A stretch of 64,000 bases of DNA from Candidatus Nomurabacteria bacterium (GCA_943348815.1 CALQYT010000002.1:37129-101128), one strand, 5' to 3'. Numbered from the stretch's first letter, positions 25,701 through 58,599 are shown. The notes: generated by a model from the sequence alone, not told the origin. Numbers and translations: made by a program.

Positions 25701-26357
25701 TCATTTGAGCGAGGTCGAACCTCGCTCACTTCCGTAACCTATCCATCCTTGTATTTCTTTTTTGAACTCTTTGGGCGTAGGAAAATAATTCGGCAACACA
25801 GTTTTGTTTAATATTTTTCCTTGGGGACGCAATATGCCAGCAAGATCTGAGTAGCTTGAATATGGATAGTCGTCTAAAGTAACCCTTTCCTTTGGATTAA
25901 TTGGATTAAGGTGTATGTAAGCAATTAAATATTTTAAATATCGATCTTCTCCTGCATGTACAGATTTAAATTTTCCTTGAAACAATGCGCCAGTACGTTC
26001 GTTTTTGGTATTGAAATACATGGTGTATGCTGTTACAAGTTTTTGCATAAATCGACTGATACCGTTATCAACTTGTTGATGTAGTAAAAGATGGAAATGG
26101 TTAGGCATAAGACAGTAGCTAACAATAGCGACCAAAGGCTCGTTTCGGTCAACTTCGAGCGCACGAGTGAGTAAGGTCGAGCCTCGTTCAGAGCGGCGGA
26201 TATTTTCTATCTTTATAGATTCGGAACTGTTGGCTAAATACAAGAGGGAAAGAAAACGTTCGTAATCAGTTTTTGTAAGAAAAATTTTGCGTTTTTCGGT
26301 GCCGCGATTATAGATGTGGTAAAACTCGCCCTTACTTAGAGGAGGTCTATTTCCCAT
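25701..26357 (-). CDS. Y1 HUH transposase, IS200/IS605 TnpA / REP-associated tyrosine transposase (RAYT)-like
   Basis: Contains 'GEFYHIYNRG', the HUH motif 'YCLMPNHFHLLL', and a catalytic Tyr region 'IAYIHLNPINP'. Confidence 0.75.
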   Translation of the reverse strand: MGNRPPLSKGEFYHIYNRGTEKRKIFLTKTDYERFLSLLYLANSSESIKIENIRRSERGSTLLTRALEVDRNEPLVAIVSYCLMPNHFHLLLHQQVDNGISRFMQKLVTAYTMYFNTKNERTGALFQGKFKSVHAGEDRYLKYLIAYIHLNPINPKERVTLDDYPYSSYSDLAGILRPQGKILNKTVLPNYFPTPKEFKKEIQGWIGYGSERGSTSLK

Positions 26358-35679: not shown

Positions 35680-35686
35680 AACGTTG

Positions 35687-35759
35687 TGGACCCGACCGGG
35701 ATCGAACCGGTTACCTCCTCATTGCAAATGAGGCGCTCTACCAAGTGAGCTACGGGCCC
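35687..35759 (-). tRNA. tRNA-Ala (anticodon UGC), no encoded CCA
   Basis: The reverse complement reads GGGCCCGTAGCTCA...anticodon loop TTTGCAA...GGTTCGATCCCGG...GGGTCCA. A G3:U70 pair is present. Confidence 0.85.
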
Positions 35760-35815: not shown

Positions 35816-36109
35816 ATGAAATCCGTGCTCGGTGTTGCGATTATGTTGGCGCTCCTTACGGGAGGTTTTGTGCACGCTGTGGTGCCGCACGACGATGGAG
35901 ACGACCACCACACGGCCACGGGCGTAGTGTGGGGGAGCTTGCACGCTGCTATACAACACGAGGACAAGCAAGTTGCCGCGCTACCCGCGATGTTTTTCTT
36001 GGCGATTTTGTCGGTACTATTTGTTGAACTCTGTTTTGTATCATTTCGTTTAATCCCCGCGCGCGACGAGCTGCGCAGAGGCATAGCAGCATATAGGCGG
36101 TTTGGCTAA
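35816..36109 (+). CDS. Small His-rich exported/membrane protein
   Basis: Signal-like N-terminus, then 'HAVVPHDDGDDHHTATG', then a C-terminal TM helix. Confidence 0.4.
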   Translation: MKSVLGVAIMLALLTGGFVHAVVPHDDGDDHHTATGVVWGSLHAAIQHEDKQVAALPAMFFLAILSVLFVELCFVSFRLIPARDELRRGIAAYRRFG

Positions 36110-36148
36110 CGAAGAGACCTTTCTCTTATTTGCGTTAGCTAAGCAAAA

Positions 36149-36829
36149 ATGAAAAAAATTCTGTTTGTTTGTTCGGCACTGTTTTTGTGCGCGCCTTTTT
36201 TGGCGAGTGCGCATCAGCATGGGACGTTTACCTTCGGCGGTTCAACCTACAGCTTTGTGGTGGGCTCGCTCAACGAGCCGGTCGCCGTTGATGACAAAAC
36301 CGGTGTCGACCTCACGGTTACCAAAGGTGCGGGGACGCCGACGATGTCAGCTGACGGTGACATGGATGGTATGCCAAAAAGTTCGACCCCGGTAACCGGT
36401 TTGGAGAAGACGCTGCAGGTTGAGCTTTCTGCCGGAGGAAAGACCAAAGTTCTCGCGCTCTCTCCCGCCTATGGCAAACCGGGTTCTTACACCGCGCCGT
36501 TTTATCCGACCGTTGCGACCTCTCTTTCGTACCGTTTTTTCGGCACGATTGATGGTACGAAAGTAAATATTACTTTTGTTTGCCGGCCAGAAGGTGCAAC
36601 CGCAATCGACGAAGGACAAAAAGATCTCGGCGGTGGCGTGATGCAAGTGTCCAAAATGGGTGGGTTTGGCTGCCCGATGGATAAAGCGTCGATGGGCTTC
36701 CCTGAACAGTCAGCGTCGGTCATCTCATTGAGTAGCGACAGCAATAGCGCGCGCACCTACTCATACGCAGGCATCGTGCTTGGCGCGGTCGCGTTGGTGT
36801 TTGGGTTGATGTGCCGCCGCAGCAACTAA
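36149..36829 (+). CDS. YcnI-like (DUF1775-type) exported copper-binding protein with a C-terminal TM anchor
   Basis: Signal peptide cleavage at 'ASA|HQHG' would expose an N-terminal His. Mono-topic C-terminal anchor 'YAGIVLGAVALVFGLMCRR'. Sits directly upstream of the CopC-CopD gene, as ycnI does with ycnJ. Confidence 0.4.
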   Translation: MKKILFVCSALFLCAPFLASAHQHGTFTFGGSTYSFVVGSLNEPVAVDDKTGVDLTVTKGAGTPTMSADGDMDGMPKSSTPVTGLEKTLQVELSAGGKTKVLALSPAYGKPGSYTAPFYPTVATSLSYRFFGTIDGTKVNITFVCRPEGATAIDEGQKDLGGGVMQVSKMGGFGCPMDKASMGFPEQSASVISLSSDSNSARTYSYAGIVLGAVALVFGLMCRRSN

Positions 36830-36834
36830 GCACG

Positions 36835-39582
36835 ATGCGGAAGATTGCAGCCATAGTGCTCGTGCTTGCCTGCGCGCCGCTCTTAGCGAGCGCGCACGCC
36901 ACACCCGTCTCATACGAGCCGGCGTCTTCTGCCGTGCTCACAAACCCTCCTAAAGAGGTTTCGATCCACTTTAGCGAAAGGGCAGATGCGGCAGCCAGTT
37001 CGTTGCAAGTACTTGCGCCGGATGGCGAGGTGGTGTCGCAGGGGAGTCCGCGCGTCGCACAGGGCGACGCGCGAGTGCTCTCTGTGTCTATCGTTGCAAC
37101 GACGAGCGGTACCTACGTGGTTAATTGGAGCGTCGTGTCGGCAGATGACGGGCACTTTACCAAAGGAGGTTACTTGTTTGCCGTTGGACAAGCGGTTGAT
37201 GCCTCTAAACAAACGTCCTCGTTTGAGTTAGTGACCACCAACAACATTCCCGAAGCACTCGGCATGACGGTCGAGTTAATGGGGCATGGGTTACTGTGGG
37301 CAATCCTATTATTTTTTGTATTCGCATTACGGCCGGTCTTAGGGCGTTTTATTGCTGAAAAACCCCTGTTGCGTCGATTGCATGCACGAGTGCTTTTTGG
37401 CGCCATCGCACTCGTCATACTGGGCGGACTGTTGCAGCTTTACACCAAGTCGTCTGATCTTTCGAGCTTGCATAGTGTTGGATTGCTCTCCGCCTTTTGG
37501 CTGTATCTCGGCACTTCGGCTGGGTTAGCCACACTCGTTCGTATGGGAGCCGCCACAATTATTGCGATCGTTTTTGCTTTTGCAAGAAAAAAGATTTTTG
37601 ATTCTGCGCATTTTACGCTGTGGGAGGGAATAATTTTTGGACTACTCTGTATTTTTGCTTTCGCGCGGGCAGTTATTAGCCACGCTACCGCAAACCCTTT
37701 TCATCCGTATTTTTCTATCCTCGTTAACTTTTTCCACGTAATAGAGAAGGACGTGTGGGCCGGTCTGCTATTTATTCTGCTCTTGCTACTGCTTATGCCG
37801 CGCCTGCGCGGGGTCTTTAGTGCGGTCGTGCAACGGGTGTTTGTGATGCTTTTGTGGGATGCAGCGGCTGTTGCGGTAACGGCAAGCTACATCGTATGGC
37901 TGCATCTAAAAAGTTTTAACAATCTCTTTTCGACCGAATGGGGGACCGCGTTTTTATACTTGCTTTGCGCCGCAGTGGTGTTGGTGCTGGTGCGGACTTG
38001 GAGCACGTGGGCACTTTGGCGCGGCCATGCCAAACAGCTCCCACTGGCGCTTGGTACAGAATTTATTTTTGCGGTGTTCGTAATCTACTTCTCGAGCATC
38101 GTTATTATTACCTCACCGCCGCTGTTAACGCCGCCAACTAAAGTTTTTAGCACCACGAGCCAAGGGATGACGATTAATCTTGGGCGCGACACTTCAGATG
38201 ATTCCGCGCTTTTGTTGCGCGCGGGCGGTGCGCCAACGGTTAGGATCGACTCACTCTCGGTCGACGCACACGCCCGTTATCCGGGTGCCTACGACATTCC
38301 TTTGGCCTTGCTTACCGGGACTACTACACACACAGTTTCGATCACCGTGCCACAGCAGAGGAGCTATGATGCGCACGCTGAGTTTGAAGTTACAAAAAGT
38401 GATTTTGTGCCACCGGCAGGATGGGAGTCGCAGCGACCGTTCGACTTTTTTACCATCGCGATAATCGTACTGGCTTTGTTGGCACTCTTATACTCCTTTG
38501 GTCTTTTGTGGATTTTGCGGCACACAAACGCACCTCCTATGTTGGTGGGCGCTACGACGCTTCAGGTCGCTGGCGCTGTGGTAGCGGCAAGTGTGGTTGG
38601 TATAGGATTTTTTGCCATCGTCATGAGTCTGGGCCTGGCAAATCCCTTTAAGGCGCTCTGCGAGAGCGACGGTAACAGGTGGCACACGATGCCGCCCAGC
38701 ATAGCGGGTGTCGCGACCAGTATGACCCCGCGCGAGGGCTGCATGTGGGGGATGGGTAGTTACACTTATCTTTTTGCCGATCAACAAGAATATAAATATT
38801 ATGAATCATTGCCACACGCAGAAGTTTCGCTCGCGGCGTCGCCAAAAATATTGGTTGCCGGAGTGCCCACCACGCTTACCGTATCGCTCACAAATGCAGA
38901 CGGGACTCCGGCGACGCTGTTTGTCGATATGGAAAAGTTGGTGCACTTGGTAATTGTCAGCAAAGACGAAACTACGTTTGCGCATATTCATGCCGCGCAA
39001 ACTGGCGACGAAATTGCGGCGTCGACTTATCACTTTACATACACCTTCCCCAAAGCGGGGGAATACTTAGTGTCAGCCGACTATGCACATGGACTGACAT
39101 TCGAATCAAAACAATTTGTAGTTATGGTCAGAGGTGCTCCGACACAAACAGTACAAGCAAAAGAGTATCCATCGCCCGGCGCTTTTGGCGGTTACCAAGT
39201 TGCGCTTAAATACGCGCTGCCGCTTGCCGGCAAAGTAGCAACGCTGCAATACACGATTACTAAAGATGACAAACCAATTACTACGATTGAGCCGTATCTT
39301 TCGGCTGCAGCGCATGTATCGATAGTAAAAAATGATTTCTCAACTTTTATTCATACGCACGGTGAGTTGCATCCGCCCGGCGTGCCGCTGCCGCCTATCG
39401 TCGTTAAAAACGGCCAAGTAGTGCACACGATGGCACAAATGATGAATGTGCCCGAGCATTTTGGCCCGCTGGTGGAAACGCATCTTATTTTCGGAACGGC
39501 GGGGCTGTATACGGTTTGGGCAGAGTTTAAAGTAAACGGTACGGTAATTCCTACCGCATTTACGGTGCGGGTGGAAGAGTAG
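36835..39582 (+). CDS. CopC-CopD fusion copper transport/resistance protein (YcnJ-like) with an extra TM segment and a duplicated C-terminal extracytoplasmic domain
   Basis: The N-terminus after 'ASA|HATPVSYEPAS...' has a CopC fold with 'WSVVSADDGHFTKGGYLFAV'. A polytopic CopD-like core follows. The C-terminal ~330 aa has two similar halves carrying 'FAHIHAAQTGDE' and 'FIHTHGELHPPG'. Confidence 0.7.
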   Translation: MRKIAAIVLVLACAPLLASAHATPVSYEPASSAVLTNPPKEVSIHFSERADAAASSLQVLAPDGEVVSQGSPRVAQGDARVLSVSIVATTSGTYVVNWSVVSADDGHFTKGGYLFAVGQAVDASKQTSSFELVTTNNIPEALGMTVELMGHGLLWAILLFFVFALRPVLGRFIAEKPLLRRLHARVLFGAIALVILGGLLQLYTKSSDLSSLHSVGLLSAFWLYLGTSAGLATLVRMGAATIIAIVFAFARKKIFDSAHFTLWEGIIFGLLCIFAFARAVISHATANPFHPYFSILVNFFHVIEKDVWAGLLFILLLLLLMPRLRGVFSAVVQRVFVMLLWDAAAVAVTASYIVWLHLKSFNNLFSTEWGTAFLYLLCAAVVLVLVRTWSTWALWRGHAKQLPLALGTEFIFAVFVIYFSSIVIITSPPLLTPPTKVFSTTSQGMTINLGRDTSDDSALLLRAGGAPTVRIDSLSVDAHARYPGAYDIPLALLTGTTTHTVSITVPQQRSYDAHAEFEVTKSDFVPPAGWESQRPFDFFTIAIIVLALLALLYSFGLLWILRHTNAPPMLVGATTLQVAGAVVAASVVGIGFFAIVMSLGLANPFKALCESDGNRWHTMPPSIAGVATSMTPREGCMWGMGSYTYLFADQQEYKYYESLPHAEVSLAASPKILVAGVPTTLTVSLTNADGTPATLFVDMEKLVHLVIVSKDETTFAHIHAAQTGDEIAASTYHFTYTFPKAGEYLVSADYAHGLTFESKQFVVMVRGAPTQTVQAKEYPSPGAFGGYQVALKYALPLAGKVATLQYTITKDDKPITTIEPYLSAAAHVSIVKNDFSTFIHTHGELHPPGVPLPPIVVKNGQVVHTMAQMMNVPEHFGPLVETHLIFGTAGLYTVWAEFKVNGTVIPTAFTVRVEE

Positions 39583-39695: not shown

Positions 39696-39769
39696 GCACC
39701 CTTAGCTCAGTTGGTTAGAGCGCACCCTTCACACGGGTGAGGTCGGGAGTTCGAGCCTCTCAGGGTGCA
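39696..39769 (+). tRNA. tRNA-Val (anticodon CAC), no encoded CCA
   Basis: Acceptor GCACCCT/AGGGTGC, D-arm TAGCTCAGTTGGTTAGAGC, anticodon loop TTCACAC, T-loop TTCGAGC. Confidence 0.85.
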
Positions 39770-39794
39770 CTGCTTCGCCAAGGCTTCGCAGTGC
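39770..39794 (+). repeat. 25-nt tRNA-trailer repeat, copy 1 (CTGCTTCGCCAAGGCTTCGCAGTGC)
   Basis: Begins immediately after the tRNA-Val discriminator. Together with the tRNA 3' end it forms GCACTGC...GCAGTGC. Confidence 0.6.
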
Positions 39795-39812
39795 GAGCAC
39801 AGGCAAGCGATT

Positions 39813-39883
39813 CGGGCTGTAGTATACCGGTAGTACGCGCGCTTCGGGTGCGTGAAGACTGGGTTCGATTCCCAGCAGCCCGA
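39813..39883 (+). tRNA. tRNA-Pro (anticodon CGG), no encoded CCA
   Basis: C1:G72 acceptor CGGGCTG/CAGCCCG, anticodon loop TTCGGGT, T-loop TTCGATT. Confidence 0.8.
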
Positions 39884-39909
39884 CAAAGTGATATAGTTTT
39901 TTGGCTTAA

Positions 39910-39980
39910 GGGCCCATAGTAAAGTGGTATTACGCGTCATTCGCATTGACGAGGCTCGAGTCCGATTCTCGATGGGTCCA
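39910..39980 (+). tRNA. tRNA-Ala (anticodon CGC), no encoded CCA
   Basis: Acceptor GGGCCCA/TGGGTCC with G3:U70. Anticodon loop TTCGCAT. Confidence 0.8.
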
Positions 39981-40005
39981 CTGCTTCGCCAAGGCTTCGC
40001 AGTGC
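39981..40005 (+). repeat. 25-nt tRNA-trailer repeat, copy 2
   Basis: Identical to copy 1. Begins right after the tRNA-Ala(CGC) discriminator. Confidence 0.6.
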
Positions 40006-40020
40006 AGGCACAAGAAGCCA

Positions 40021-40050
40021 GCAAAACTCCCCAAATGGGGAGTTTTGCTT
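40021..40050 (+). terminator. Rho-independent terminator
   Basis: AAAACTCCCC-AAAT-GGGGAGTTTT perfect hairpin followed by GCTTT. Confidence 0.6.
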
Positions 40051-40106
40051 TAAGTGGAGAAGCAGTGTCCTGCGTAGCTTTAGCGGAGCAGGGCTATAAT
40101 CGAATC

Positions 40107-40346
40107 ATGCACTATGTGTATATTCTCCAAAGTCAGGTGGATGGAAGTTTATATGTGGGTGTCACCGAGGATATAAAACGTCGTTTTGTCGAACACAATA
40201 ATGGTAATGCTAAATATTCAAGCTCGAAACGGCCTTATAAACTGAAATGGTTTTGTGCATTCCCAACGAAACAAAAGGCACTTATCTTCGAAAGATATCT
40301 AAAACACGGTTCCGGTTTTGCTTTTGCACGAAAACATTTAATTTAA
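40107..40346 (+). CDS. GIY-YIG nuclease family protein (YhbQ/UPF0213-like, 80 aa)
   Basis: 'MHYVYILQSQVDGSLYVGVTEDIKRRFVEHNNG'. The ORF-track call 39924-40346 runs through tRNA-Ala. The real start is the Met at 40107. Confidence 0.8.
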   Translation: MHYVYILQSQVDGSLYVGVTEDIKRRFVEHNNGNAKYSSSKRPYKLKWFCAFPTKQKALIFERYLKHGSGFAFARKHLI

Positions 40347-40616: not shown

Positions 40617-41162
40617 ATGGGGGGTTCAGAAACGATAAGCATTGCGGTGGCGCTGTTGGCGCTGTTTTTGGTGTTGAGTACGGCGCTCAAGTATGCCGTG
40701 CGCGATAACTTTCATCGCACGAGGCTTATCATGACGCTGTTTTTCTTTTTCATTATCATCACGCTCACGATGGCGTTTTGGCGCTACACGCTCGCCTCGT
40801 TGCCCTCTACCATCCCTGCGGCGCTTGCAGGCGTGGCGCTTGGCTATGTGGCGGGAGTGCGCGAGGCGCAACGCAAATTAATGGAGCAAGGAGTTGAGTT
40901 TTATCGCGAGCACTTCCATCACGTGCACTTTATGGATATCCAAAACCTCAGTTGGTGGAGCGTTATTAACTTTTACTCCGTGATGGGCGCATTAGTGTTG
41001 ATTAACCTGGTAGGATTGAGCACCGTATTTTTTGTTGGGCGCGAGTCGTGGGCTATTGCGAGCTGTGTGGTGGGCGCCCTCCTTTTAGGATCCTTGGTGC
41101 CGTATCTCGTGCACCTGTGGAGCCTGCCTGCCGGCAAGGCAGGTATTAAAGCAGCGGACTAG
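40617..41162 (+). CDS. Hypothetical polytopic membrane protein
   Basis: 181 aa with five predicted TM helices. Confidence 0.4.
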   Translation: MGGSETISIAVALLALFLVLSTALKYAVRDNFHRTRLIMTLFFFFIIITLTMAFWRYTLASLPSTIPAALAGVALGYVAGVREAQRKLMEQGVEFYREHFHHVHFMDIQNLSWWSVINFYSVMGALVLINLVGLSTVFFVGRESWAIASCVVGALLLGSLVPYLVHLWSLPAGKAGIKAAD

Positions 41163-41847
41163 CAATAAGCGCTGCACAAGCAAACAAAAGTACGATAAGC
41201 GAGCTGTGGAATATGCGGCGCGCGATCTGGCGTGTGTGGTTGCTTGGTGTTTGGTGGACAAATAACGGCACTCCGGCTGCTTGGTATTCTTCGTAGCGAT
41301 AATACGCAATTGCCATAAAGTGCGGTATCTGCCATAAAAATAGCGCCGCAAAAAGTATGAACGCATACCAATCGAGCAGGTTGGTTGCTGCAACATATCC
41401 GACGACCGGCGGCATGGCACCGGCGAGTGCTCCAACCCAAAGCGCGTGCGGGGTTTTTGGTTTAAGGGGGGTGTAAACGAAGACGTAAATCACAAATCCC
41501 AACAAACCAAATACCAAACTTAAAAGGTTAATCTTCCACAAAAGGACAATACCCAGAGTTAAAAATGCTGAAGCAAAGAGTATCGCGTGCCGTACACTGA
41601 TGCGCCCTGCAGCGATGGCGCGGTTGTTGGTGCGCGCCATTTTGGCATCCATGTAGCGATCGGAGACGTTATTGCAAACACAGGCGGCGGCGACTACGCA
41701 CGACAACCCGATCAACAGTTCCCAAAAAGGAATACTTGCGCTGAGCGTAGTCGAACCAAAAAAGAATCCCGCTACTGCCGCGAGCGCGTTGCCCGCCACC
41801 ATGCGGGGTTTGGCGAGTTCGAAATAATCACGGAGCGTCCTAGTCAA
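41146..41847 (-). CDS. cyoE: Protoheme IX farnesyltransferase (heme O synthase)
   Basis: UbiA-family topology and motifs ('NNVSDRYMDAKMARTNNR'). It is the last gene of the cyo operon. Confidence 0.85.
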   Translation of the reverse strand: MTRTLRDYFELAKPRMVAGNALAAVAGFFFGSTTLSASIPFWELLIGLSCVVAAACVCNNVSDRYMDAKMARTNNRAIAAGRISVRHAILFASAFLTLGIVLLWKINLLSLVFGLLGFVIYVFVYTPLKPKTPHALWVGALAGAMPPVVGYVAATNLLDWYAFILFAALFLWQIPHFMAIAYYRYEEYQAAGVPLFVHQTPSNHTRQIARRIFHSSLIVLLFACAALIASPLL

Positions 41848-42175
41848 GTTGGTGTTCGGGGGATGGCTCGCCTATAAACATTTCGGATTGATTGTGTTGG
41901 AGATTGCTCATGATCCATAGCGAGCCACCAACCACGAGCACGACTATCAAGATTGCAAAACCATAGACAAATTTGTTCCACCCATTGCCTTGAGGTAGGT
42001 GCAAGAAATACACGGTTTGTACCAACAGTTGAGCCACCGCAAACAGCGGTAATACAACATAGAGCAGCTCGTGAGGAATTGCCGTGTGATTCATATGCAC
42101 ATGCATCCCCACCAATCCAAAACTCAAAAGAGTAAATAAGAGCGAGAGGATCAGGCCGTCAAAATAGTGCTTCAT
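41840..42175 (-). CDS. cyoD: Cytochrome o quinol oxidase subunit IV
   Basis: Roughly 110-aa 3-TM protein directly after cyoC. The start is taken at 'MKHYFDGL', which overlaps the cyoC stop as ATGA. Confidence 0.55.
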   Translation of the reverse strand: MKHYFDGLILSLLFTLLSFGLVGMHVHMNHTAIPHELLYVVLPLFAVAQLLVQTVYFLHLPQGNGWNKFVYGFAILIVVLVVGGSLWIMSNLQHNQSEMFIGEPSPEHQLD

Positions 42176-42666
42176 ATAATTCCAAAGAGATACACAAAGG
42201 TGAAGATAAAGATCCAGATGATGTCGAGGAAGTGCCAAAAGAGCACGAGACGCTGCAGTTGATAAAACCGTTGGGTGACGAGCATCACCAGCATCCACAA
42301 ACATCCTGCGGCAACATGCAGGCCGTGCGTGCCGACGAGGGCAAAAAATGAGGAGAGGTAGGCCGAGTGAGAAGGTCCAAAACCCTCGAGCATTAAATTT
42401 TTAAATTCGTAGACTTCCAACCCAAGAAAGCCCAAGCCAAGCAGAAGGGTCAGTATTAGAAAAGTATTTTGTTTTTTAGTGACAAAAGCGAGCCCGACCG
42501 TAAAACTTGAGATAAGCAGGGCGAGGGTTTGGACAAAGACGAACGGTAACGAAAAAATATCTTCGCTGCCGCGCAACACCGCAAACGTAGCAAAGAGGCT
42601 CGCAAAGAGCACGCAATCGCTCATGATATAGAGCCAGAATCCCAGCGTTGTTTTGTCAGTCGGCAT
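42172..42666 (-). CDS. cyoC: Cytochrome o quinol oxidase subunit III
   Basis: Five TM helices, '[21 protein letters not shown]'. Heme-copper oxidase subunit III family. Confidence 0.8.
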
Positions 42667-44467
42667 ATTCTGGTTTAGGGAGAGTGATGAGGGACAACAA
42701 AATACCGATCAAAGCCAGCGCAGCGAGCCACCAAATGTGCCAGATGAGTCCAAAACCAAAGAGTGCGGCGACCGCGCCTATGGCGACGCCGCGTGCGCTG
42801 CGCTCATGCAATGGTTCGGCCGGTTCTTGCCACTCAGGGCCCTGCGAGCGCCACGGATTTTCGCCCACATGATGTTTATGTTTATTCCAAATGCTCACGA
42901 TTATTTGAATTATTTGGAATAGGACCGCGAGCGCTATTACGGCTGCACCAGCCGCTGCGATATCAAATAACCAATGTGCCCACGGTTGTGTGTACAAGCC
43001 ACTTGCAACGTCGATATGGTCGAGCCGGCGGGTGACGCCCATTAACCCAAGCGCGTAGAGCGGCATAAAGGCCATAAGGAAGCCCACGATCCATGCCCAA
43101 AACGCAGCTTTGCCCCAGCGCTCATTTAACATAATCCCCGTAAATTTGGGGAACCAGTAGGTAAACCCGGCAAAGAATCCAAACACCACGCCGCCGATAA
43201 TCATGTTGTGAAAGTGCGCGACCAAAAACAAACTGTTGTGAAGCTGAAAGTCGGCTGCGGGGATAGACATTAAGACGCCCGTCATTCCGCCAATGGTAAA
43301 CGTGGTGAGGAAGCCTATAAACCACAGCATCGGTGTGGCAAAAATAATCCGTCCGCGGAACATCGTGAAGAGCCAGTTAAATACTTTAACCCCGGTGGGG
43401 ATAGCGATAGCCATCGTCATGATGCCAAAAAAGGCGTTGACATCGGCACCGGCGCCCATGGTGAAGAAGTGGTGCACCCACACCATAAACGACAACACCA
43501 CAATGAGCATGGTGGCGACGACCATGGAGGTGTAGCCAAAAAGTTTTTTCTGCGAAAAGGTCGCGACCACTTCAGAAAATATGCCAAACGCGGGGAGTAC
43601 CAAAATATACACCTCTGGGTGGCCCCACGCCCAAATGAGGTTGACGTACATCATCGCGTTGCCGCCCAGATCGGTGGTAAAAAAGTGGAAGCCGAGCGTG
43701 CGGTCAAGTGCAAGCAGTGCCAACGTGACCGTGAGTATGGGGAAGGCAAAAATAACCAACAACATCGAGCCGAGGGTTGTCCACGTAAACATTGGCATTT
43801 GCATGAGCCGCAGGTGGCCACGCATGGTGGCAATGGTGGTAAGAAAGTTGATGCCCGAAAGTAAAGTACCAATACCCGCAATTTGGAGGGCCCAAATATA
43901 ATAGTCGACACCAACCCCCGGGGAGTAGGCAAGTTCGGAGAGCGGCGGGTAGGCAAGCCAGCCCGTTGCCGCAAATTGTCCGACGACGAGCGAAAGGTTT
44001 AAAAGCAACGCGCCGGTTGCGGTGAGCCAAAAGCTAATCGAGTTGAGGAGGGGGAAGGCGACGTCTTTGCTACCTAGTTGGAGCGGCAACACCAGGTTTA
44101 TGATGCCAAACATAAACGCCATTGCCGCAAAAAAGATCATAATGACACCGTGCGCGGTAAAGAGTTGGGCAAAATGGTCGGGTGAAATATAGCCTGGCGC
44201 GCCAACGGCAAGCGCTTGCTGCGATTTCATCATCAGTGCATCGACAAAGCCGCGGCCAAACATCACAAACGACAGCAGAATGTACATGATGCCAATGCGT
44301 TTTGGGTCAAGCGAGGTGAGCCACTGTTGCCAGAGCCATCGCCAACGACCTAAGTAGGTGATCGCGAGTACGGTGACGAGCACTGCGACAATAACGATGA
44401 TTTGCGCGCCCGTTTCGATAGGGCCGTGGATGAATGCTTGCGGAGTTAGGAGTCCAAAGAGCGACAT
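42656..44467 (-). CDS. cyoB: Cytochrome bo3-type quinol oxidase subunit I (heme-copper oxidase catalytic subunit)
   Basis: Contains '[23 protein letters not shown]' and '[16 protein letters not shown]'. The His ligands for heme and CuB are conserved. Confidence 0.9.
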
Positions 44468-44468
44468 G

Positions 44469-45230
44469 TTAGTGGCCGAATTGTTTCAGTATCGCATGGT
44501 AGAGGTCGATGCGATATGCATACGTGCGTTCTTGTTCGGTACTTGGTGCGCGTAGCGCGCTGTAAGTTGCCTGATCGAGCACGGGCGAGGTAGAGGCAGT
44601 TGCAGCTACCCACGCTTCAAAATCTTTTTGAGCGACCGCGTGCACCACAAAGTGCATACCGGCAAAACCCGCGCCGCTGTAGTTGGCCGAGTAGCCGGGA
44701 TAATCACCGGGTTTGTCGGCCATCAAGTTGAGCCTATTATCCATCCCGGTCATCGCATAAATTTGCCCGCCTAACTGTGGCACCCAAAACGAATTCATGG
44801 GCGCATCGGCGGTAATGTGGAACTCAACCGGTATGTTGGCCGGAATTTCTAGCGTGTTAAGGCTGGCAACCCCAAGAGAGGGGTATAAAAAGAGCCATTT
44901 CCACGGCAGTGCGACGACCTCGACTTGTAATGCGGGGACGGTCGAGGGGAGGGGTTTACGGGGATCGAGTGCATGCGTGCTGCCCCAGGTGAGTGCGCCG
45001 AGTACCAAAATAATTTCGAGCGGGATCGCCCACCAAATAAGCTCGTCCATCTTAGCGTGCTCCCAGTTAGGAGAGTAGCGAGCTTTGTGGTTACCAGCGC
45101 GATAGTAGTAGGCAAAGAAAAAAAGCAGCACAAACACCGGTACCACGACAATAAGCATAAGAAGCGTCGCTTGGATAATAAGCGACGCTTCTTGGCTCGC
45201 GATGATGCCGCTGCTCTGCAGCAAGTACAT
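44469..45230 (-). CDS. cyoA: Quinol oxidase subunit II (CyoA-type, CuA site absent)
   Basis: '[52 protein letters not shown]' aligns to E. coli CyoA. The CuA Cys/His ligands are missing. Confidence 0.85.
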
Positions 45231-54073: not shown

Positions 54074-57000
54074 ATGTATACCCATAAACTAGGGCTCGGG
54101 GGCACTTTTATTATCTCCGCATTCATTGGCTTTAGTTTATTTTTGGCCATTACCGCACACGCGGCAACGGTCTTGCATGTAGACAATACGGTTACTTGCG
54201 ATAACGCAACCGTAGATTCGTCCGTAACTCCTTTTTGTACGATTAGCGCAGCGGTGACTGCCGCAACTGCCGGCGACACGATCCAAGTTGCCGCAGGAAC
54301 GTATAACGAATCAGTGGTCATTGATAAAACCCTCACGCTGCAGGGTGCACAACAGGGTGTTGATGCGCGCACGCGCTCCGCGTCTGAATCTGTAATTAAT
54401 GGCACCAGCCCTATCGCGATCATGGCAGATAACGTCGTGATAGACGGTTTTACCATCCAAGGTTCAGATAGTAGTAGCTTTATCTCCGGTATTTGGGATA
54501 ACCCAAGTTACTCGGGTACTCATGGTGGGTTTCAGATTCTCAATAACATTATCCAAAACAATGTAAGCGGCATAGGAGTAGGCAATGACGGCACTATTCA
54601 AGCGTTAGTGGAGTACAACCTCATAAAAAACAACAATACCGCTGGCCCAGGAAGCGGCAACGGCTTTTCGGCTGCTTTTGAGACGAAAAACGTCGTGATC
54701 AGCTACAACACGTTTGACAACAACCAACTCTACGTAAACGGTTTTGAGTCATCGGGCAGCACCGGGGTACAGAATGTTACCGTTTCGTACAATGAAGTTG
54801 AAAATGTTTCCTCATCGGGCTTCTTCCTTATGGGTGCTTCGGGAATGACGCTCAGTGATAACGATATCCATGACAACGCAGGAAATGGTCTTTCTATGGC
54901 CGGTGCCGTTGATAGCACCACCATCTCAGGTAGTACGTTTAAAAATAATACCGGGTACGGAGTTAAGGTTTCGGACGACTACACGGTAGGAGCCAATAGC
55001 AATATTTCTGTGCAGACGAGCGACATAGAAGCCAATACTCTTGGGGGTCTTTTGGTTGATGTGGGCACTTATACGGGAACGCTCGATGCGTCTCAAAATT
55101 GGTGGGGAGCACTCTCAGGGCCGGCTAATGCAACTACTAACCTCTCTGGCACCGGTAACTCAGTGTCCGATGGGGTAACTTTTAAGCCCTGGTATATCGA
55201 TAGTGGTCTTACCACCCTCAGTAACGCGGCACCGACCATCGACACCTTTACCATCCTCGGTGATGGCACGGTCGATCAGGGCACCAAAACAGTTGCCGTA
55301 ACGGTAGCGTACGGCACCGATGTTACGGCGCTCACACCAACCTTTACCTTTACTGGTTCATCGGTCTCGCCAAACAGTGGTGTGGTAAACAATTTTTCGA
55401 CTCCGCAAATTTATCCGCGTATTCTATCGACGGCACGGTAACCGAGGCTTACACCGTCACGGTCAAGCAAGCACAAGCGATCTCGCCTATTATTTCTGCA
55501 CCGGCGAGCGCCAACTACAAATCGAGTTTTAATGTCGCGGCTATAGCCAACTCAGGCCTGAGTGTTGCTATCACTACGACCGGCGGTTGCTCGGGCAGCG
55601 GCACGGGTGCAGCAGCTATAACCATGACGAGCGGCACGACCGCTTGCGTGGTGCACTACAACCAAGCCGGCAATGCGTCATACGCTGCAGCCACCGAGGT
55701 AACCGAATCAACCACGGCACAAAAGCTCCCCCTTACGGTCACGGGCGTCACCGCAAACGACAAAGTGTATGATGCCGGCATAGTGGCATCACTCAACACC
55801 GGCAGCGCGGTATTGGTAGGCGTTGCAAGTGGTGACACCGTTAACCTCAATGTCGCAAGTGCCGCGGGAGCCTTTGCCAACAAAAACATAGGTTCTAACA
55901 AAACAGTAACGATTACCGGTATTACGACCGATGCAAACGCCAACAATTACTCACTCTCTCAGCCAAGCACAACTGCTTCTATTACTGCCCGCGCACTCAC
56001 TATTACGGCAAACACGGATACCAAAGGATACGACGGCACCACCAACTCGAGTGTCGCGCCGACGATCACCTCGGGAGTTATACAAGGCAGCGACGCGAAT
56101 GGTTTTTCTCAAGCCTTTAGCACCAAAAACGTTGGCACCGGCAAAACCTTGGTCCCGAGCGGTGTCGTCAACGACGGCAACAGCGGCAACAACTACACCT
56201 ACACGTTTGTTAATAACACCACGGGTGTTGTTACGGCCGCGCCGCTTACGTTGACCGCACAAATTAACACCAAGGTGTACGACAGCACCACCAGCGCTGC
56301 AGCGGTGCCTACGATCTCGGGCCTTCAAACAGGCGACAGCGTAACTAGCCTTACTGAAACCTACAACACGGCAAGCGTTGGTACGGGCAAGTCGCTCTTT
56401 GTCTCGACCTACACGGTTAATGACGGCAACAGTGGCAACAACTACAGTGTTTTGTTGATCTCAACCAACTCTGGTGTCATCACGGCGCGGCCGATTACGG
56501 TTACGGCAGATGCGCAGTCTAAAACGTATGGCTCAAGCGACCCCACGTTGACTTACCAAATTACCTCGGGCGCGTTGCAGGGGAGTGATACGATCTCTGG
56601 CTCGTTGACGCGTACTGTGGGTGAGACAGTCGCCAGCTCGCCGTACGCAATTGCGCAGGGTACGCTCAGCGCGGGTAGCAATTACTCGCTCACCTTTGTT
56701 CCTTCGACTCTGACGATCAATAAAAAGGCGTTGACCGTAAGCGGTATCACCGCAAGCAAGGTTTATGACGCAAGTACGGCAGCTACGCTCGTTACCTCGG
56801 GCGCATCATTTACCGGTGTGGTCGGTAGTGATGCAGTCACTCTGGATAGCTCGGCGGTCTCGGCTGCAACTTACGCTGATAAAAATGTCGGTACCGGCAA
56901 AAGCATCTCTTACAGCGGCTCTTTTGCGCTCGGTGGTGCTGATTCGGGCAACTACACGCTGACGCAACCGGCTATTACGGGCACTATCACGCAGAAGGCG

Positions 57001-58599
57001 CTTACGGTTTCGGCAACGGGTATCAATAAAACCTACGATGCTACGACCGCGGCTACCGTCACACTTTCTGACGACAAAATTTCTGGCGACACCGTCACCG
57101 ACAGCTACACAACGGCGACGTTTGACACCAAAAATGTTGGCAGCGGCAAGACCGTAAGCGTTAGCGGTATATCGATCAGTGGCACGGATGCGGGTAACTA
57201 CTCCTTCAACACCACGGCAGCGACGACCGCCACGATCATCCAAAAAGCCCTCACGATAACGGCACAGACCAACACCAAAACGTACGATGCAACCACCGTT
57301 GCCGCAGCAACGCCGTTAGTATCAGGCTTGCAGGGTAGTGACACGGTAACCGGTCTTGCCGAGACGTATGCCAACGCTAATGTCGGCACTAGCAAAACAC
57401 TCTCGGTTTCGGCATACACGGTTAATGACGGCAACAGTGGCAACAACTACGCGGTCTCGAGTGTTAACGACACGACTGGCGTGATCAGCCAAAAAGCTAT
57501 TACCGTAACTGCTACCGACACCAGCAAAGTCTACGGAAGTTCTGATCCTGCGCTGGCTTACACTGCGAGCACACTTTCGGGCAGTGATACTTATAGCGGC
57601 ACCCTTGCACGTGTTGCGGGCGAGACGGTCGGTACCTACGCCATAGGGCAGGGGACGGTAAATGCGGGTAGCAACTACAACATCACCTTTACTGCCGGCA
57701 CGTTTACCATCACGATCGGTCCTAGCAGCTCGGCGGTTGTTTTGACCACCACAACCAATCTTGATGGCACCAAGTCGGGTACGACCCCAACCTCCAGCAA
57801 TACCTCGACCTCGACCCCAACTGAAGGGAAGAACATCACGGTTAGCATCCCGTCTGGTTTGACGGTCACCGGTCCTTCGACCTGGGACGGCTCGATCAAC
57901 TTCCTCCCCGCTGATGTTGGTGCCGTATCGCCAGTGGCGCCATCGGGCAGCTCGGTAGTTGAGCAAGGTTCCATCAATCTTGGGTTTGGCGACAGCACGC
58001 TGACCTTCGACAAAGGAGTACGCATACTCTTTAGTGGTAAAGCAGGCAACCTGGTGGGTTACTCGCACGGCGCGGGTACCTTTACCGAAATAACCGCCGC
58101 ATGTACGGCTGATACACAGGCCGCGGGCGATGCACTCTCCACAGGTGGTGATTGCAAAATGGACGTAGGTTCCGACCTCGTAGTCTGGACCAAACACTTC
58201 TCGGCCTTTACGCTCTACACCTTAAAATCGACAACCTCTTCGTCGGGCGGGGGTGGTAATGGTCCTGTTGCGGGCGGCGGTGGCGGAGGAGGAGGTTCTA
58301 ACTTCTCCACGCCAGCTTCGGTATCTGCAACCTCAAACGGGGGAGGCGAGGTATTGGGTGCAGAAGGATTCAAATTCACCCTCAATCTCTCGCTCGGTAT
58401 GCACAACAGCGATGTGACCGAACTCCAAAAACTACTGATCGCGCAGGGCTTCCTTAAAGTTGCCGCGCCGACGGGATGGTTTGGTCCGCTCACGCAAGCA
58501 GCGGTAAAGAAATATCAAACGGCGCATAAGATCTCTGCTACCGGTTTTGTTGGTCCGCTCACGCGCGCGCAACTCAATCTGGATATCGCCAAGCAATAA
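54074..58599 (+). pseudogene. Giant surface protein (about 1500 aa if joined) split by a frameshift in a T5 run at about 55393-55397. The ORF-track parts are 54074-55441 and 55624-58599.
   Basis: Frame 2 reads '...SPNSGVVNNFSTPQ'. Frame 1 reads '...FDSANLSAYSIDGTVTEAYTVTVKQA...', continuous with the 55624 ORF. Both look coding. The shift sits at 'caatttttcgac'. Domain layout is an N-terminal right-handed beta-helix, then about 9 MBG(YGX)-type repeats ('YDxTTxA'), then a C-terminal peptidoglycan-binding domain. Confidence 0.55.

Follow-up and report, generated by a model that had tools for sequence, protein, structure and literature searches.

Bacterial copper import is far less understood than copper export, and the described systems closest to the one reported here, YcnJ/YcnI of Bacillus subtilis and YebZ of Escherichia coli, were characterised only in 2021–2026. 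YcnJ is a 541-residue importer that joins a CopC domain, a CopD membrane core and a YtkA domain in one polypeptide. Its partner YcnI, a DUF1775 protein that binds Cu(II) through a monohistidine brace, exchanges Cu(II) with the CopC domain of YcnJ (PMC12362106, PMC13344008), and under copper starvation YcnJ supports the CuB-only quinol oxidase Qox (PMC13344008). The YobA-YebZ-YebY (AZY) system of E. coli follows the same CopC (YobA) plus CopD (YebZ) logic; in YebZ, the substitution H135A reduces copper uptake and H154A abolishes it (PMC11923076). Here, we describe a cluster of three genes, p1, p2 and p3, at positions 35816–39582 of a 64,000-nucleotide stretch (hereafter the window) from a Candidatus Nomurabacteria bacterium, part of a 137,928-bp metagenomic contig. 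The cluster is probably an operon through which a monoderm-like cell of the Patescibacteria (candidate phyla radiation, CPR) acquires copper by means of membrane-bound proteins of the YcnJ/YcnI type.

A first-pass annotation, made by a model from the sequence alone, had proposed a copper-acquisition module at these positions, and copper acquisition is the best reading of the present analysis too. The kind of system is known, but the enlarged YcnJ relative and its two partners are undescribed in the searchable literature, in which a search for such a module in CPR bacteria returned nothing; in databases, p3 carries the label 'copper resistance CopC' and p2 appears as 'hypothetical'. The new features are the ten helices, extra immunoglobulin-like (Ig-like) domain and duplicated His3Asp YtkA-like domains of p3, the partner family represented by p2, and p1. 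Domain identities, ligand conservation, topology and operon conservation are supported directly, and from the analysis as a whole we infer which metal p2, p1 and the YtkA-like domains bind, which way transport runs and which enzyme is the client.

Organisation of the cluster

The three open reading frames (ORFs) lie on the same (+) strand, fill positions 35816–39582 as a tight cluster and have exactly the coordinates that the first-pass annotation gave them. A gap of 39 nucleotides separates p1 (35816–36109) from p2 (36149–36829), and the p2 stop codon is followed after 5 nucleotides by the ATG of p3 (36835–39582). The source record uses this ATG, giving a p3 of 915 amino acids (aa); an alternative GTG start at 36811 would give 923 aa (36811–39582). 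Labelled relatives of the window proteins belong to Candidatus Adlerbacteria, Kaiserbacteria, Paceibacterota and Minisyncoccia, all Patescibacteria. A scan of the operon for promoters and terminators found no more sites than in shuffled sequence and was therefore uninformative on transcription units, and the operon held no gene for a YcnK-type repressor.

p3 is an enlarged CopC-CopD fusion

p3 is confidently a fusion of CopC and CopD, which is continued by an Ig-like domain, two transmembrane (TM) helices, a linker rich in Cys, Met and His, and two YtkA-like domains. The AlphaFold2 model of the protein (predicted local distance difference test 91.5, predicted template modelling score 0.89) contained ten helices in total and placed every soluble domain and all conserved His residues on the outer side. 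With ten helices and a predicted cleaved signal peptide, every soluble domain of p3 would be extracytoplasmic. Conservation was counted over 112 full-length homologues for p3 and over 243 homologues for p2.

The CopC domain (36895–37185, aa 29–125) scored 62.9 bits against PF04234, for which the cut-off is 23.3, and matched the NCBIfam model copper_CopC at E = 8.8e-17, under the equivalog cut-off of that model. The N-terminus of p3 reads LLASA followed by H29ATPV, and predicted cleavage after ASA would expose His29, which was present in 110 of the homologues, while Asp113 and His115 of the DxH motif (Asp113-Gly-His115) were found in all 112. The spacing of 86 residues between His29 and His115 equals that between His24 and His110 of YcnJ, a pair for which there are mutant data (PMC12362106), and the N-terminal His and DxH brace of C0-1 CopC proteins form a defined Cu(II) site (PMC12362106). 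There is no Met within residues 29–125 and therefore no Cu(I) site. The domain was assigned the CopC beta-sandwich fold, and among solved structures its nearest relative is the CopC domain of YcnJ, which binds Cu(II). The first-pass assignment of CopC is thus upheld by the profile search, and the domain carries a complete predicted Cu(II) site of the C0-1 type.

Eight helices between residues 146 and 433 of the model make up the CopD-type membrane core (37246–38118, aa ~146–436), with His291, His309 and His365 at the outer face; the fold of this core was most like that of quinol-site subunits (cytochrome bd, NrfD). p3 itself scored 14.9 bits against PF05425, under the cut-off of 32.1 (E = 0.035, aa 338–425), whereas full-length homologues with 31–34% identity to p3 passed that cut-off at the same position (P0116, 37.4 bits; P0113, 36.6 bits; P0112, 32.6 bits). 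Over 190 columns, hhalign matched the p3 family profile to YebZ of E. coli (E = 5e-5, probability 67%), pairing His291 (S-H-A-T-A-N; 112/112 homologues) with YebZ His135 (G-H-A-T-L-N) and His309 (109/112) with YebZ His154. The YcnJ counterpart of YebZ His135 is His295, which is needed for function (PMC13344008). Since homologues pass PF05425, the profile aligns to YebZ and both essential His residues match, the CopD assignment, also made in the first-pass annotation, appears secure at the family level, with the window protein itself sub-threshold.

The YcnJ-type order of signal peptide, C0-1 CopC, eight-helix CopD and extracytoplasmic YtkA-type domain is present in the single p3 polypeptide and, as for YcnJ, the adjacent gene encodes a small protein that is anchored in the membrane and would begin with His once processed. 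p3 is ~380 residues longer than YcnJ and differs from it in adding an Ig-like domain after CopD, a TM hairpin that brings the helices to ten in all, the Cys/Met/His linker and a second YtkA-like domain, and in having an extra invariant TM His (His365); its CopD and YtkA regions are too diverged to reach Pfam cut-offs alone. The likeness to the AZY system extends to the H-A-T-x-N motif common to YebZ and p3 and to a third small extracytoplasmic partner alongside; that partner, YebY (DUF2511), is unrelated to p1 and p2, and unlike p3 the AZY proteins are separate polypeptides that work in a diderm periplasm and have no YtkA-like domains.

The elements that p3 has in addition to those of YcnJ follow the CopD core. 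The middle extracytoplasmic beta-sandwich (Ig-like) domain (38128–38445, aa ~440–545; strands at 446–527 in the model) had no Pfam match, and its conserved residues (G493-Y494 and Y519-D520-A521) include no obvious metal ligands. It is followed by the hairpin (38446–38631; helices 546–570 and 583–607), after which the chain returns outside; the first-pass description of a protein far longer than YcnJ, with an extra TM block, was accurate. The linker (38632–38805, aa ~608–665) reads C617...W624-H625...G643-C644-M645-W-G-M-G, and C617 and C644 were found in 112/112 homologues, H625 in 109/112 and M645 in 107/112, with Trp624 near-invariant.

The C-terminal part consists of YtkA-like/Ig-like domain A (38806–39156, aa ~666–782), with H712, D719, H725 and H727, and YtkA-like domain B (39157–39579, aa ~783–923), with H835, D842, H848 and H850. 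Residues 666–782 aligned to residues 783–923 at a BLASTP E value of 3e-4, and the two domains have in common the motif H-x6-D-x5-H-x-H, all eight His and Asp residues of which were invariant (112/112). The duplicated extracytoplasmic HxH domain that the first-pass annotation had noticed is therefore well founded. Domain B alone has an extra His/Met loop, with an invariant His872. Against PF13115 (YtkA), the C-terminal segment of the window protein (aa 631–923) scored 18.3 bits and the whole of p3 14 bits, under the cut-off of 25.9, and the isolated domains matched YtkA, Filamin and PKD about equally weakly; the cut-off was passed, at 27–30 bits, by homologues P0108, P0109 and P0110 for domain B and P0086 for domain A. 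Judged by these homologues, YtkA-like would be the right label at the family level. A relationship to CopC was tried and rejected, as hhalign comparison of the YtkA-like domains with CopC was negative.

CtaK (YtkA), the lipoprotein that assembles the CuA site in B. subtilis, resembles the C-terminal domains of the p3 family in that they reach the PF13115 cut-off, are extracytoplasmic and have conserved His residues and, in domain B, a Met-rich loop. In p3, by comparison, the domain is duplicated and fused to a transporter, and the local oxidase has no CuA site.

Shorter relatives of p3 (in loci L057, L059, L062, L063, L066–L068 and L081–L083) matched it only to about residue 665, keeping CopC-CopD, the Ig-like domain, the two TM helices and the linker without the two YtkA-like domains. 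The YtkA-like pair therefore looks like a separable module.

p2 is a predicted YcnI analogue on a different fold

p2 is a 226-aa extracytoplasmic beta-sandwich protein with a predicted signal peptide (residues 1–21) and a C-terminal TM anchor (~204–222); a C-terminal helix spanned residues 191–225 in the model. Its N-terminus reads FLASA followed by H22QHG. A His followed the AxA site in 234 of the 243 homologues, with Ala at position −1 in 233, and cleavage after ASA would leave His22 as the first residue of the mature protein, as the first-pass annotation had stated. Glu43, 21 residues after His22, was present in 238 of the homologues. Specific to the family are a DD motif (Asp48/49), a conserved Cys pair (Cys145/Cys175) and a variable loop (~59–83), which is rich in Met and Asp here (TMSADGDMDGM) and rich in His and Glu, or in His, Glu and Met, in distant members.

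These features resemble those of YcnI. Predicted cleavage exposes a near-invariant His in both proteins, followed by a near-invariant Glu (21 residues on in p2 and 23 in YcnI; PMC8424229), with the spatial equivalence of Glu43 putative; in both, one beta-sandwich makes up the ectodomain and a TM segment anchors the C-terminus, and both are encoded beside a CopC-CopD gene. p2 differs in giving no DUF1775 match and in having the Cys pair, DD motif and variable Met/Asp/His loop. There is no Trp anywhere in p2, and nothing therefore stands in for YcnI Trp137.

Homology to YcnI/DUF1775 (PF07987) was rejected, as hidden Markov model, profile–profile and fold tests were all negative. p2 had no Pfam or NCBIfam match at E ≤ 1, and its distant relatives had none at E ≤ 0.1. 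A search of PDB sequence profiles with the p2 family returned only a chance match to MurT and did not find YcnI, and hhalign of the family against YcnI, using a sequence checked against PDB entry 7me6, gave a probability of 0.06%. Nor was the YcnI fold the nearest structural neighbour of p2. A diverged copy of CopC or YtkA was likewise rejected, since hhalign showed no sequence-profile similarity of p2 to the CopC domain or to the YtkA-like domains. The closest fold was that of CrdA, and the best fold matches were enriched for copper proteins (CrdA, P19, Tp34, HftA, CopC and PmoD). Helicobacter pylori CrdA has no His and binds through Met (PMC9182242), whereas p2 has a near-invariant N-terminal His and a membrane anchor.

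On sequence and model together, p2 is best described as an analogue of YcnI and not as a member of its family. The first-pass label 'YcnI-like' thus fails as a statement of homology and holds as one of design (His, Glu, beta-sandwich and anchor). Because no relationship to YcnI, CopC or YtkA was detectable, the case for copper binding by p2 rests on this design, the fold neighbours and the gene context.

The p2 family comprised 1284 representative clusters at E ≤ 1e-3. Among 77 genome-representative loci, a p2 gene lay directly upstream of the p3 homologue in nearly all of those with upstream DNA, and the pairing spanned CPR, Acidobacteriota, Ignavibacteriota, Binatia and Peribacteria.

Several variants of p2 and its surroundings were observed. 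At L010:9134–12817, the p2 and p3 homologues were read in a single frame uninterrupted by a stop, with ~20 residues between the anchor of p2 and the signal peptide of p3; this is either a natural fusion or an assembly error. Two p2-family proteins, P0425 and P0440, had extra C-terminal modules; one of these tails was DUF305-like by eye (motif HHEGAVEM), read without a Pfam scan, and the other was an H-x-H-x-Y-x-N-G domain, seen also at the C-terminal end of a 250-aa PG_binding_1 protein. The latter protein was encoded between p1 and p2 in 8 loci (for example, L011:8400–9167). In 37 loci from Acidobacteriota, Peribacteria and other distant groups (L027–L032, L034–L038 and L045–L058 among them), the p2 and p3 homologues were ~600 bp apart, and a fourth family, p4, was inserted between them. 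Its members, ~190 aa long, combine a signal peptide with a beta-sandwich and a TM anchor at the C-terminus and are weakly YtkA-like, with no conserved N-terminal His; no stand-alone p4 homologue was found in the window.

p1 is probably a small His-rich membrane protein

p1, a 97-aa His-rich small membrane protein identified from its ORF and alignment, had no match in Pfam or NCBIfam. Its homologues lie upstream of p2 in ~25 loci of the Paceibacteria type. The protein has hydrophobic segments at residues 4–22 and 59–77, and its N-terminus reads GGFV followed by H20AVVPH. The layout comprises TM1, an outer loop (H20-A-x-x-P-H25...W39..L-H43...K51), TM2 and a basic tail (L-R-R-G...Y-R-R-F-G), and an alignment of 24 sequences showed TM1, G-x3-H-A-x-x-P-H-x-H, a short variable and often His-rich stretch, W-x-x-L-H-x6-K, TM2 and L-R-R-G-x3-Y-R-x-F.

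The residue before the first His is Val here and mostly Leu, Val, Met or Phe across 23 homologues, which makes a poor signal-peptidase site, and a cut after H-A would remove the invariant His. We therefore read p1 as a two-TM protein that is not secreted: most likely, both hydrophobic segments span the membrane, with both ends cytoplasmic and a His-rich loop outside, and p1 is probably not cleaved to expose an N-terminal His.

The first-pass annotation had a signal peptide followed by His in all three proteins, and cleavage leaving His first in p1 and p2. The pattern of AxA followed by His was found in p2 and p3, whereas p1 has a hydrophobic segment followed by His20 that is unlikely to be cleaved; the second protein with a predicted exposed His, beside p2, is p3.

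A proposed route for copper and the alternatives

In the proposed mechanism, p2 would capture Cu(II) through the free amino group and imidazole of His22 once signal-peptide cleavage had exposed them, probably assisted by Glu43 and the acidic Met/His-rich loop. Cu(II) would then be exchanged between p2 and CopC in p3 (amino terminus of His29, Asp113 and His115), CopC may pass the ion to His291 and His309 at the outer face of CopD, and the CopD core would carry copper across the membrane as an importer. The TM hairpin would return the chain to the outside, where the linker and the two His3Asp YtkA-like domains may offer more sites for copper. Analogy with CtaK and with the YcnJ YtkA domain suggests that the YtkA-like domains may retain copper or hand it on to cuproenzymes in the membrane or outside the cytoplasm. 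p1 could act as an accessory that places a His-rich loop at the membrane surface, and the nearest copper client in this genome would be the CuB centre of the adjacent cyo-type quinol oxidase.

Several results weigh against this mechanism. There is no detectable sequence relationship of p2 to YcnI, CopC or YtkA; the CopD and YtkA scores of the window p3 itself are under the Pfam cut-offs; and the hhalign match to YebZ reached only 67% probability, with a single sequence as target. No gene for COX1, COX3 or heme O synthase lay within 10 kb of p3 at any of the 77 other genome loci, whose flanks were tested only for p1, p2, p3 and these three cyo genes. Lastly, the neighbourhood of p3 included Fur-family regulators at 13 loci and ZIP transporters at 8, which leaves room for another metal or for a broader metal island.

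The alternative that survives best, though we regard it as unlikely, is copper resistance or buffering, in which p2, CopC, the linker, the two HxH domains and p1 would sequester excess copper at the cell surface. Source records annotate homologues as 'copper resistance CopC family protein', and the original description of CopC and CopD came from a resistance operon (background in PMC12362106). CrdA, whose fold is nearest to that of p2, is a resistance determinant, and a sequestering and regulatory role has been proposed for YcnI (PMC12362106). However, YebZ, YcnJ and Pseudomonas CopCD raise cellular copper (PMC11923076, PMC13344008), and the two His residues critical for import are conserved in p3. 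The predicted CopC site is of the type that binds Cu(II) with high affinity and lacks a Met-rich Cu(I) site, and a check of window genes for their Pfam content, which was not exhaustive, turned up no gene for an efflux ATPase, a multicopper oxidase or a CopB-type protein.

Slightly less probable again is that the cluster is a dedicated assembly factor for the CuB site of the neighbouring oxidase, handing over copper at the outer face without general import. A cyoE-cyoD-cyoC-cyoB-cyoA quinol-oxidase operon, which is not part of the module, lies on the − strand at 41146–45230 (Pfam UbiA, COX4_pro, COX3, COX1 and, weakly, COX2), 1.6 kb downstream of the cluster, in agreement with the heme-copper oxidase operon that the first-pass annotation had placed about 2 kb away. 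It includes cyoE (41146–41847), cyoB (42656–44467) and the gene for a CyoA-like subunit (44469–45230). CyoB has the CuB ligands (HPEVY, HH) and the CyoA-like subunit has no Cys-containing CuA motif, so CuB is the only copper site of the oxidase, which makes it the CuB-only enzyme type that YcnJ supports (PMC13344008).

In the three closest relatives examined (53–54% p3 identity), p1-p2-p3 lay 2.2–4.2 kb from cyoE in the same orientation (3/3), and this linkage was kept though the upstream flanks and intervening genes differ. In YcnJ, the YtkA domain has a part in oxidase assembly (PMC13344008). On the other hand, the same domain is dispensable for Qox in B. subtilis (PMC13344008), p2 and p3 are paired in phyla whose respiratory chains differ widely, and synteny in one clade may be simple inheritance. 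Since the 77 other loci have no oxidase within 10 kb, dedicated CuB supply, which the first-pass annotation had suggested, cannot be the general role of the family; since YcnJ supports a CuB-only oxidase, CuB supply is a reasonable role locally, consistent with the linkage in the closest relatives. By analogy, then, the cyo operon is a possible copper client here.

That another metal (Zn, Ni or Fe) explains the His3Asp motifs, the His/Glu-rich loops and the Fur and ZIP neighbours is very improbable: neither HxH plus Asp sites nor poly-His/Glu loops are specific to copper, and the fold neighbours P19 and Tp34 bind other metals too, but the N-terminal His and DxH brace of the C0-1 CopC domain is a defined site for Cu(II) (PMC12362106), the histidines of CopD have been linked to the uptake of copper (PMC11923076), and one p2 homologue carries the DUF305-like tail noted above while some loci have a cupredoxin-like neighbour.

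The copper-acquisition operon preferred here may also be set in a wider frame, which we offer tentatively and hold to be less likely true than not at present: p1 and p2 would found two new copper-handling families, serving a transporter that relays copper on its outer face. On such a view, p2 would bind Cu(II) by an N-terminal His generated by signal peptidase, a solution like that of YcnI but reached independently on a CrdA/CopC-like fold, and would be the near-obligate partner of a ten-helix CopCD transporter whose range extends from the CPR to the Acidobacteriota. On the outer face alone, copper could be relayed and perhaps also reduced by the two His3Asp domains, with delivery to cuproenzymes bypassing the cytoplasm.

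The p2 partner family has no Pfam or NCBIfam model and mimics YcnI on a different fold, and it offers biochemists a large set of candidate N-terminal-His copper binders. That ~3.7 kb is kept for the module in very small genomes suggests that copper supply matters to CPR bacteria, and the clade-specific linkage to cyo connects the acquisition of copper with the ability, still debated, of some of them to reduce oxygen.

Neighbouring genes and other features of the window

Genes of the Fur and ZIP families recurred within 5 kb of p2-p3 (for example, L005:12646–14002), which suggests a metal-homeostasis neighbourhood and a possible regulator. At L004:8316–8789 (− strand), a 157-aa cupredoxin-like protein, a possible alternative copper client, was encoded divergently from p1, and its relatives lay near the module in L024 and L033.

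In the window, a tRNA-Ala gene (35686–35759, − strand) flanks the cluster on one side and a run of tRNA-Val, tRNA-Pro and tRNA-Ala genes (39696–39981) on the other. A 140-aa GIY-YIG ORF called from a GTG start (39910–40346) overlaps tRNA-Ala(cgc) (39910–39981), and its true start is therefore probably further downstream. A 181-aa multi-pass membrane protein with no Pfam family (40617–41162, + strand) overlaps the 3' end of cyoE; its position is kept in the three closest relatives examined (178–183 aa), and it could be an oxidase accessory factor. The oxidase itself, a quinol-oxidase-type enzyme in a CPR genome, adjoins an ATP synthase operon. Elsewhere, the window encodes an IS200-like Y1 transposase (25701–26357, − strand), a beta-helix NosD-like protein (54074–55441, + strand) and a 991-aa surface protein (55624–58599, + strand) with six YDG stretches, two MBG stretches and a peptidoglycan-binding domain.

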